A DNA stretch of 64,000 bases from Naegleria gruberi (Eukaryota): assembly GCA_000004985.1 (NCBI GenBank), contig GG738918.1; one strand, given 5' to 3'. Under the pieces are notes generated by a model, which worked only from the letters and a program-made list of their open reading frames with translations, was not told where the DNA came from and did not search any database. A program made the position numbers and the translations under genes. Every line of letters begins with the position of its first letter. Positions within the stretch are counted from its first letter, which is position 1. Below are positions 3,307 through 4,146 of the stretch, piece by piece.

Positions 3307-4146
3307 ATGCTCAACATCTCTGTCGAGGAAATTGTTCATCACTTGAATGAACACCTTCAAAAAGCCTATGAATCATCACCGAAATTGGAACAATATGAAA
3401 ATCCACGAATTGTTCAACAAGATGATATTCTACTTGTAGGAGTTTACGGATCACATATTTATGGATTGGCAACTGAACAATCAGACTTGGATATTTTCAT
3501 AATTGCATCGGAAGGGTTGGATGGTGAATTGGCCAAGTTGAGAGAGTTGATTCCGAACAAGCAGGATTATTCATATCAAGTAACTGAATTGCAAATTAAT
3601 GGAAAACAAGTTGATTTTTCAATTTATTCGGAAAAGTTATTTAGAGAATTATTGATGAGATTTATTTTGGATAGTTTTGAATTTTACTCGATTTTAATGA
3701 TGAGAAGAGAGTGGATGGTTCATGTGAATGAAGAGTTTGCTCAGCAAATTAAGGAATATGTGGAGAATAATGTTGTGAATTCTGCTGAGAGAGCTCTCAA
3801 TCTAAGAAAGGCAATTTCCAGAGAATCAGATCACTCATTTGTGAAAGGAAAGAACAAGATTGTAAAGGAATTCAAAGTTTATAAGGGAATCAAAGCCATG
3901 TTTCATTCATTGAGAACTGTAGTATTTGGCATTCAAATTGCAAAACACAACCAAGTCATTGATTTCTCCAAAGCAAACGAATATTGGAAAGAATTTGAAT
4001 TGTTCTACAGGGAAAAGATTGAATCTCAATTGAATGTTGAACCAATAGATTATGAAAAGATTTGGCTCACACTACGTGAGGAATTTCAACCAAAACTCAG
4101 ACAACTCCAGACAGAGTTTCGAATGGCAGCCAAATCCTCCCTCTAG
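3307..4146 (+). CDS. Nucleotidyltransferase-fold protein (pol-beta superfamily), kanamycin-nucleotidyltransferase/ANT(4')-like
   Basis: Intronless 279-aa ORF. The motif VGVYGSHIYGLATEQSDLDIFI fits the NTase signature hG[GS]x9-13Dh[DE]h. From memory it closely resembles KNTase IGVYGSLGRQTDGPYSDIEMM. A roughly 170-aa helical C-terminal part follows, as in KNTase_C/OAS-like NTases. Confidence 0.65.
   Translation: MLNISVEEIVHHLNEHLQKAYESSPKLEQYENPRIVQQDDILLVGVYGSHIYGLATEQSDLDIFIIASEGLDGELAKLRELIPNKQDYSYQVTELQINGKQVDFSIYSEKLFRELLMRFILDSFEFYSILMMRREWMVHVNEEFAQQIKEYVENNVVNSAERALNLRKAISRESDHSFVKGKNKIVKEFKVYKGIKAMFHSLRTVVFGIQIAKHNQVIDFSKANEYWKEFELFYREKIESQLNVEPIDYEKIWLTLREEFQPKLRQLQTEFRMAAKSSL

Follow-up and report, generated by a model that had tools for sequence, protein, structure and literature searches.

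The gene at positions 3307..4146 on the plus strand of a 64,000-nt stretch of Naegleria gruberi DNA (assembly GCA_000004985.1, contig GG738918.1; the whole stretch is referred to below as the window) is an intact, intronless and real nucleotidyltransferase (NTase) gene, and the family it belongs to has its main home in large and jumbo bacteriophages, with probable further members in klosneuvirus-type giant viruses and a patchy presence in protists. This NTase family is most likely a compact, well-defined peripheral branch of RlaP (PF10127, 'RNA-ligase-associating Pol-beta'). Our preferred reading, which we put at a probability of about 0.55, is that the protein would be a template-independent RNA 3'-end 'refilling' enzyme of the RlaP-like branch, acquired long ago.

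The open reading frame (ORF) starts with ATG and runs without interruption through 279 codons to a stop, as stated in the initial annotation of this stretch, and no ORF of ≥60 amino acids (aa) was found on the opposite strand at 3307..4146. It is well past what chance would produce, with a homolog at E=3.6e-45 and 523 cluster representatives at E<1e-3. The start context AAAAAAATG is common to the downstream gene, with a repeat (D2) at 3301-3321 and 4307-4327. The features of the gene are given below, with their basis in brackets.

3186..3306, plus strand: A/T-rich intergenic spacer of 121 nt upstream of the NTase start, presumably with promoter and 5' untranslated region (sequence)
3307..4146, plus strand: complete coding sequence of the putative RlaP-like nucleotidyltransferase (ORF list; full-length N. 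fowleri homologs, E 3.6e-45; AlphaFold2 model)
3307..3414, plus strand: N-terminal helical extension, residues 1-36 (family alignment; model helices at residues 6-23 and 25-29)
3415..3666, plus strand: Pol-beta NTase core, residues 37-120 (Pfam matches; conservation counts)
3448-3453, plus strand: G48-S49 (family conservation)
3484-3492, plus strand: D60-x-D62 (family conservation)
3667..3783, plus strand: linker region, residues 121-159, with a eukaryote-specific insertion (family alignment)
3679-3681, plus strand: E125, on the first linker helix (264 of 268 sequences)
3784..4143, plus strand: C-terminal helical-bundle domain, residues 160-279 (family signature; segment 160-240 is basic)

The GS-x10-SDLD signature noticed initially is present as VGVYGS-x10-SDLDIFI. 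Pfam matches were obtained for NTP_transf_2 (2.8e-6; 28.1 bits against a gathering threshold (GA) of 21) and Polbeta (5.6e-6; 26.9 bits against 26.9), both covering residues 36-112, and for RlaP (5.9e-5). The AlphaFold2 model, for which a 38-sequence alignment served as input, has a mean predicted local distance difference test score (pLDDT) of 91.1 and a predicted template modeling score (pTM) of 0.88, and shows long helices after an alpha/beta NTase core, among them those of the helical C-terminal domain that had been proposed. By its motif, intact carboxylates and confident NTase-fold model the protein is a member of the Pol-beta nucleotidyltransferase superfamily.

Residue conservation was counted over 268 family sequences. 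G48, S49 and D62 are each kept in 267 of them and D60 in 266. D103 occupies the canonical third-strand carboxylate position and is variable in the family (N in 126, D in 91 and S in 29 sequences), while E125, which belongs to the helix following the sheet, is kept in all but four and is paired in the alignment with the D of 'ALD' of T4 NrdC.11. This pattern suggests that the third catalytic acid may have been relocated from the beta-sheet to a helix, a trait that would be common to RlaP. With its catalytic residues all in place, the protein is predicted to be a catalytically intact two-domain NTase. In the C-terminal domain R167, S171, K180, K184, K196, H200, R203 and Q210 are invariant in the family; the signature reads LR167-x3-S171...[HN]S[FW]VK180-x-K-x-K184...K196-[SA]-L-F-H200-S-x-R203...F-G-x-Q210-I...N224 here and LR-x3-S...[HN]S[FW]VKAKKK...KSLFHSLR..FGxQIA across the family. 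The N-terminal extension is found in the longer eukaryotic forms, whereas phage forms of ~200 aa have a short one or none.

A word-indexed homolog search with the single protein returned no match, itself included; the 523 proteins mentioned above came from phmmer, run exhaustively over 1.84 billion cluster representatives, and a profile search yielded 275 matches at E<1e-5, with 'predicted nucleotidyltransferase' as the best name. Most family members are metagenomic proteins of ~200 aa. The four best matches are long forms:

P0001, Naegleria fowleri: 44% identity, E 3.6e-45
P0002, metagenomic: 42% identity, E 2.5e-44
P0003, Willaertia magna: 35% identity, E 5.6e-25
P0004, metagenomic: 35% identity, E 3.1e-24

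The relation to RlaP is seen in comparison with T4 NrdC.11, a named RlaP member (PMC12776372) that scores 46.6 bits against PF10127. Alignment of the family to the single NrdC.11 sequence by hhalign gave 95.5% (E 1.4e-8, 83 columns), and alignment to a 16-sequence NrdC.11 profile gave 96.0% (E 4.3e-9) over residues 44-129 including the ALE/ALD helix; it reaches past the generic NTase motif and takes in the helix carrying the near-invariant E125. Against PF10127 itself the window protein scores 23.3 bits (GA 23.0), passing marginally and with its best stretch limited to residues 26-98. P0008 reaches 31.1 bits (profile positions 7-177 of 249) and P0158 27.9 bits, and the copies of N. fowleri and phage Nate stay below the threshold at 17 bits. 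In PHROGs the protein matches phrog_388 'nucleotidyltransferase' (2e-9).

The initial annotation had described the protein as very closely resembling kanamycin nucleotidyltransferase (KNTase), a resemblance that turned out to consist of the generic Pol-beta motif. Aligned by hhalign to pUB110 ANT(4')-Ia, the family gave 14.9% (E 0.0018) over 42 columns, which is the motif alone; BLASTP against KNTase covered residues 39-68 only (E 0.011), and in a profile hmmsearch of all PDB sequences KNTase (E 0.1-0.19) ranked no better than minimal nucleotidyltransferase (MNT) antitoxins, ANT(3''), terminal uridylyltransferases (TUTases) and GLD-2. A single-sequence search of the PDB gave nothing significant, and none of the NCBIfam ANT models matches the protein. 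In a Foldseek search of the PDB, ANT(4') was the top match (E 3e-6, template modeling (TM) score 0.35, 12% identity), with no close solved relative, and the proposed KNTase-like structure therefore stands at the level of fold class; as a family the protein is most likely RlaP-like instead.

A KNTase/ANT(4')- or LinB-like enzyme of bacterial origin, adenylylating an aminoglycoside, a lincosamide or another small molecule for use against antibiotics, would share with KNTase ANT(4')-Ia, LinB, AadA and ANT(3'')(9) the generic hG[GS]-x9-13-D-x-[DE] motif and with KNTase-type enzymes the two-domain plan of an NTase followed by a HEPN-like helical bundle. The conserved basic residues of the C-terminal domain would, in our view, speak against an aminoglycoside polycation pocket, and we hold such an enzyme to be very improbable and the antibiotic-related role suggested earlier to be wrong. 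The KNTase/ANT(4') family was ruled out as a place for the protein, there being no sequence or profile similarity beyond the generic NTase motif. The C-terminal domains of KNTase-type enzymes are generally HEPN-like in fold, and the protein may also be pictured as an MNT-type antitoxin fused to a HEPN-like domain, a relic of a toxin-antitoxin system. With the NCBIfam equivalog for MntA it scores 21.9 bits, where 60 are required, and the match spans the 36-residue motif only, the HEPN motif R-x4-6-H is missing (8 residues separate R167 from [HN]176, a position where most members have N), and no gene for a HepT-like HEPN toxin is found next to it, all of which makes a relic of this kind barely credible. 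The MntA/MNT type VII antitoxin assignment was rejected on the score threshold and the missing HepT partner.

Among 50,697 phage genomes, tblastn matched 60 records, 51 of them over ≥80% of the query. Carriers include the Xanthomonas jumbo phage XacN1 (385 kb, 3e-19), Bacillus Tsamsa-like phages and an uncultured phage of 642 kb. IMG/VR holds at least 100 confirmed loci, many on contigs of 200-530 kb, and a scan of prokaryotes (one genome per species, 185,579 species) found matches on 7 contigs of metagenome-assembled genomes (MAGs), 1 of them also listed as viral; both scans were seeded with one or two peptide patterns, so that their counts are minimum figures and cannot be strictly compared with each other. 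The 425,361-bp contig JBBACR010000001.1 from a MAG classified in GTDB as 'Candidatus Pacearchaeota' is the same as IMGVR_UViG_3300035208_004923 and is probably a jumbo phage mis-binned into the MAG. The plasmid collection contains only two matches, the Bacillus non-mobilizable replicons NZ_CP076118.1 and NZ_CP106792.1 of 162-166 kb. In size and NTase identity (28.2%) both agree with Bacillus phages such as FADO and PJN02, and it is likely that these replicons are phage-plasmids or else phage genomes catalogued as plasmids.

The best structural matches among viral proteins (BFVD) come from giant viruses, headed by the Terrestrivirus NTase A0A3G4ZNK3 (TM 0.78 over the 229-aa target, 24% identity, E 7e-12) and followed by Klosneuvirus A0A1V0SHU2 and fusion proteins of Yasminevirus and Terrestrivirus. 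In the fusions the NTase fold is joined to Endonuclease V or an exonuclease (Yasminevirus A0A5K0U7I7, 1081 aa; Terrestrivirus A0A3G4ZN96, 794 aa). These partners act in nucleic-acid repair or processing and fit a nucleic-acid substrate. From the modeled structures, the giant-virus NTases probably belong to the same family as the Naegleria protein. Giant viruses of the Klosneuvirus, Terrestrivirus and Yasminevirus type infect amoebae.

Eukaryotic and eukaryote-like copies were found as follows:

N. gruberi: the copy in the window
N. fowleri: P0001
Willaertia magna: two paralogs
Acrasis kona: one copy
Entosiphon sulcatum (euglenid): two tandem NTase modules
Luapelamoeba hula (amoebozoan): in the transcriptome only
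Metagenomic contigs with WD40, CH, F-box, RING, SPC22 or Arf neighbors: eukaryote-like copies

The Entosiphon protein P0050 (618 aa) carries two full modules separated by a linker of ~170 residues; on bootstrapping the modules fail to group with each other (0.055). The N. fowleri and Acrasis orthologs already bear generic 'nucleotidyltransferase' annotations. No match was found in animals, fungi, plants or dictyostelids among the 1.84 billion representatives. The initial annotation had assumed a dictyostelid as host, but the organism is N. gruberi: the mitochondrial carrier encoded at 10273-11241 on the minus strand matches a public N. gruberi protein, encoded on a 222-kb contig, with 100% identity from end to end. 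By contrast the exact NTase protein is absent from a collection of 15 billion proteins and no N. gruberi protein appeared among the NTase homologs in any search, and the gene therefore seems to be without a public N. gruberi gene model.

Judged from the sequences, the gene was probably acquired horizontally by Heterolobosea in the distant past, with a virus or the DNA of ingested prokaryotes or phages as its source, and was then kept. The initial annotation had proposed a bacterial acquisition, of which two elements stand, namely that the NTase is of non-eukaryotic type and that a transfer is probable; the source would be a phage or giant virus and not typical bacteria, and the event would be old. 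A compositional test for recent horizontal gene transfer was negative, and the codon usage and GC3 (G+C content at third codon positions) with which a foreign origin was to be checked gave no foreign signal. Compared with 25 other long ORFs of the window, GC3 of the NTase gene is 0.333 (0.306±0.034) and its synonymous-codon fit 0.193 (0.190±0.051), so that it looks host-like. Neither repeats nor an insertion scar flank the gene, only short chance repeats being present. The homologs of N. fowleri and Willaertia are likewise intronless and lie inside eukaryotic contigs of 778 kb and 375 kb.

In the full-set neighbor-joining (NJ) tree the heteroloboseans form an 8-member clade in species-tree order. 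Of the phylogenetic check that had been proposed, the grouping of Naegleria with P0002 came out clearly (0.91 in a bootstrapped 76-sequence subset), while the deeper nodes are without support. Synteny between N. gruberi and N. fowleri or Willaertia is too weak to prove an orthologous position: besides the NTase only an RGS-domain gene matches N. fowleri, adjoining the NTase there and lying ~12 kb off in N. gruberi. According to the family alignment the eukaryotic forms bear insertions relative to the compact phage form, which gives them a derived look; in the heterolobosean copies these insertions are lineage-specific. Because the gene occurs in four heterolobosean species, the diversity is overwhelmingly viral and the eukaryotic forms seem derived, we infer a transfer from virus to eukaryote before the split of Naegleria and Willaertia as the favored course.

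The opposite course, in which an ancient vertical gene of Discoba was captured by giant viruses and passed on to phages, would agree with the host-like composition and the species-tree order just described, with the eukaryotic nature of all the closest relatives (N. fowleri, Willaertia and metagenomic contigs of eukaryote-like type) and with the copy in the euglenid Entosiphon, which also belongs to Discoba. It is at odds with the weight of diversity on the viral side (IMG/VR supplies at least 100 contigs and the 80 viral loci fall into 27 lineages at 50% identity, compared with a few protists), with the mostly bacterial and phage distribution of the characterized sister group RlaP (PMC12776372), with the very patchy occurrence in eukaryotes, with the insertions into the compact phage form and with a eukaryote monophyly that has no bootstrap support. 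We consider it rather unlikely.

For the gene neighborhoods, 1,400 ORFs from 80 viral loci (±5 kb) were clustered and the recurrent clusters annotated, without presupposing any partner. Lineages were defined by clustering the NTases at 50% identity, which gave 27 among the 80 loci. The recurrent neighbors are:

ClpP: 14 of 80 viral loci
T4 Rnl1-type RNA ligase: 11 of 80, rising to 15 when four ligase queries were searched iteratively
NAMPT: 9 of 80
P-loop kinase plus HD phosphoesterase (end-healing): 9 of 80
S8 peptidase: 9 of 80
Guanylate kinase: 7 of 80
ADP-ribosylglycohydrolase: 6 of 80

In the 15 loci, which represent 8 of the 27 lineages, the RNA ligase lies ≤5 kb from the NTase and always on the same strand, a proximity well above chance because a 10-kb slice is 2-7% of these viral genomes. 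Examples are a viral locus (L001) with two RNA ligases ~2-4 kb downstream and phage Nate, where the RNA ligase gp172 follows 1.6 kb downstream. In jumbo phages the distribution of RlaP has been reported to mirror that of RNA ligases (PMC7824862). The characterized enzymes PfRlaP and PaRlaP add 1-2 nucleoside monophosphates to an RNA 3'-OH, prefer damaged RNA and are needed for restoring aminoacylation of tRNA short of nucleotides, and the RlaP structure combines an NTase domain with a helical domain around a basic cleft (PMC12776372). N. gruberi has 7 Rnl1, 5 Rnl2, 1 Rnl5 and 2 RtcB ligases (PMC4408790).

From the homology to RlaP and the viral gene context we infer the refilling role. D60, D62 and a third acid (E125 and/or D103) would bind two divalent metals and the nucleoside triphosphate, and the basic C-terminal domain would grip the RNA end. 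One or a few nucleotides could then be added without a template to the 3'-OH of a broken RNA, for example a nuclease-trimmed tRNA, and the refilled ends might be resealed by the 5'-PO4/3'-OH RNA ligases that are unusually abundant in N. gruberi.

Some of the viral neighbors would also suit an NTase tied to a conflict over NAD+ or ADP-ribose, which would act on ADP-ribosylated or NAD-capped targets or rebuild an NAD-derived metabolite. Beside the NAMPT genes and the ADP-ribosylglycohydrolase genes (the latter in 4 of 27 lineages), ORF208 of XacN1 is situated amid NMNAT/NUDIX, NaPRT and DUF1768 genes, and the member at locus L001 is near an NAD synthase and an isochorismatase. NAD genes are, however, typical of those auxiliary-metabolism and counter-defence regions of jumbo phages which also hold RNA-repair genes, and the adjacency may be incidental; the association covers 4 lineages against 8 for RNA ligases, and RlaP is the only characterized enzyme with homology to the family. 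A link to NAD+ metabolism is thus unlikely in our estimate.

Several observations weigh against an RlaP-like refilling enzyme of ancient viral descent. The Pfam RlaP score of the window protein sits at the threshold, the similarity to RlaP is significant for the N-terminal ~85 residues only, and the C-terminal domain, a helical bundle in the model for which the Pfam RlaP profile could be aligned to position 177 of 249 in some members, fails to align with T4-type RlaP in hhalign against NrdC.11, and we therefore place the family at the periphery of RlaP instead of among its core members. The third carboxylate is not conserved in the family, so that the active-site geometry may depart from that of textbook Pol-beta NTases. 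RNA ligases accompany the NTase in only ~30% of the phage lineages, and ClpP, NAMPT, ADP-ribosylglycohydrolase, guanylate kinase and S8 peptidase as neighbors point elsewhere or reflect auxiliary-gene regions. No RNA-repair genes were found in the window or beside the other eukaryotic NTase copies, which is expected of a eukaryotic genome without operons. Lastly, the deep tree nodes collapse on bootstrapping (0.015 for a single heterolobosean clade); we therefore do not claim a single acquisition, and there may have been one transfer or several, with a phage or a giant virus as donor.

More speculatively, a domesticated viral RlaP-like NTase and the expanded Rnl1, Rnl2 and Rnl5 ligases might together make up a eukaryotic 'trim-and-refill' RNA repair that undoes the damage of nucleotide-excising ribotoxins of prey bacteria or infecting giant viruses. 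This would be the first eukaryotic system of RlaP type and a distinct family, in which the third acid has moved from sheet to helix. We offer it as a tentative idea with the odds clearly against it.

The NTase gene is located between two tandem genes for secreted proteins, each with an intron, as had been noted initially:

1513..3185, plus strand: secreted-protein paralog A, upstream; signal peptide, intron 1834-1934, low-complexity S/T/N/R-rich tail (ORFs, intron enumeration, paralogy)
4313..5919, plus strand: secreted-protein paralog B, downstream; intron 4625-4680 (ORFs, intron enumeration, paralogy)

Identity between the two genes is 36% in the second exon (E 4e-45) and 33% in the first, and both introns are canonical (GTAAGT...AG) and restore the reading frame. 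The paralogs share a conserved core, NFVDGIGTYS...APVVKSKTFQ, and have long tails with NTRNT/NNRRT-like repeats. Neither has a Pfam match or a counterpart at the N. fowleri NTase locus, and the pair is confined to N. gruberi. The remainder of the window is of clear eukaryotic character: it encodes RGS and protein kinase domains, DUF4116 and EGF repeats, an adenylate/guanylate cyclase and a tRNA-Tyr that presumably contains an intron.

An AlkB-like 2-oxoglutarate (2OG)-Fe(II) oxygenase (PF13532, below threshold) is encoded at 8473-9549 on the minus strand, 4.3 kb from the NTase. In N. fowleri a 2OG-FeII_Oxy/DIOX_N gene follows directly downstream of the ortholog (11351-12325 of locus L009), and phage XacN1 has an AlkB-like dioxygenase ~5 kb from its family member. 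These neighbors are probably coincidental, as the Pfam families differ and there is no tblastx synteny. The N. fowleri locus also contains, at 829-2198 and ~8 kb upstream of the NTase, a weak 2H phosphoesterase (2_5_RNA_ligase2) match without a counterpart in the N. gruberi window. The RGS element, the sole non-NTase element common to both loci, is the C-terminal domain of a 596-aa protein at 16198-17988 on the minus strand, which has a weak CHASE4-like match at its N-terminus. Seven DUF4116 repeats are found in a 538-aa protein (11631-13247, minus strand) and the repeat recurs in a protein with CNH, Vps39 and protein kinase domains (58027-61119, plus strand). The 1656-aa ORF at 47194-52164 on the plus strand combines Peripla_BP_6 with an adenylate/guanylate cyclase catalytic domain, the architecture of a receptor-type cyclase. 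An Rfam scan of the window gave only two matches, tRNA-Tyr(GTA) at 42723-42806 on the minus strand (84 nt, presumably intron-containing) and tRNA-Lys(TTT) at 22536-22608 on the plus strand.

The analysis corrects a plausible but wrong annotation, the protein being neither an antibiotic-resistance-like enzyme nor the product of a dictyostelid gene, and assigns an apparently unannotated N. gruberi gene to a virus-centered NTase family related to the recently characterized RlaP. The purpose of the outsized RNA-ligase repertoire of Naegleria is puzzling, and an end-refilling NTase, present also in the pathogen N. fowleri, is a candidate component that can be tested. The gene adds a further example of genes common to amoebae and viruses, here retained across heterolobosean amoebae. 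Otherwise the advance is incremental, as a few eukaryotic PF10127 proteins are already mentioned in the RlaP literature.

Among known systems, Cid1, GLD-2 and other TUTases as well as MTPAP share the Pol-beta NTase core with the window protein and would share the RNA 3'-OH as acceptor too, if the RlaP-like assignment is right; they differ in that the protein remains below the PF22600 cutoff, has no domain associated with poly(A) polymerase (PAP) and matches them poorly in structure. PAP/TUTase proteins as the best homologs would have refuted the initial annotation; this was not borne out, and the TUTase assignment was rejected (PF22600 18.6 bits against GA 27, no PAP-associated domain, Foldseek TM <0.2). 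The protein might alternatively be a signaling or immune NTase that makes an oligonucleotide or cyclic messenger, in the manner of HalB, CD-NTases or OAS, and serves amoebal antiviral defence or acts as a viral decoy. Hailong HalB, an anti-phage oligodeoxyadenylate synthase, has no detectable sequence similarity to the family, and its HalA partner and defence-island context are missing from a family that is carried by viruses and protists; we think a messenger-making enzyme improbable. The HalB and CD-NTase assignments were rejected on score thresholds or missing partners. The giant-virus NTases are the best structural matches to the Naegleria protein anywhere, and differ in that some of them are fused to nucleic-acid repair nucleases.

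RlaP, represented by T4 NrdC.11 and Pseudomonas fluorescens PfRlaP, is set apart from the present branch by its length (250-340 aa, against ~200 aa for the phage forms here), by the C-terminal signature that the branch has of its own (R-x3-S...[HN]S[FW]VKAKKK...KSLFHSLR..FGxQIA), by Pfam scores that for most members of the branch are at or below the threshold, and by a mostly bacterial distribution (PMC12776372), whereas cellular prokaryotes hardly ever carry the branch. What the two have in common is the GS-x-[VIL]YG-x5-SD-x-D signature, a conserved acidic residue (in ALE here and in ALD in NrdC.11) on the helix that follows the NTase sheet, and an NTase domain joined to a C-terminal helical domain, which in the present branch may likewise form a basic cleft; both are prominent in large phages, where RNA ligases and end-healing enzymes are their gene neighbors.

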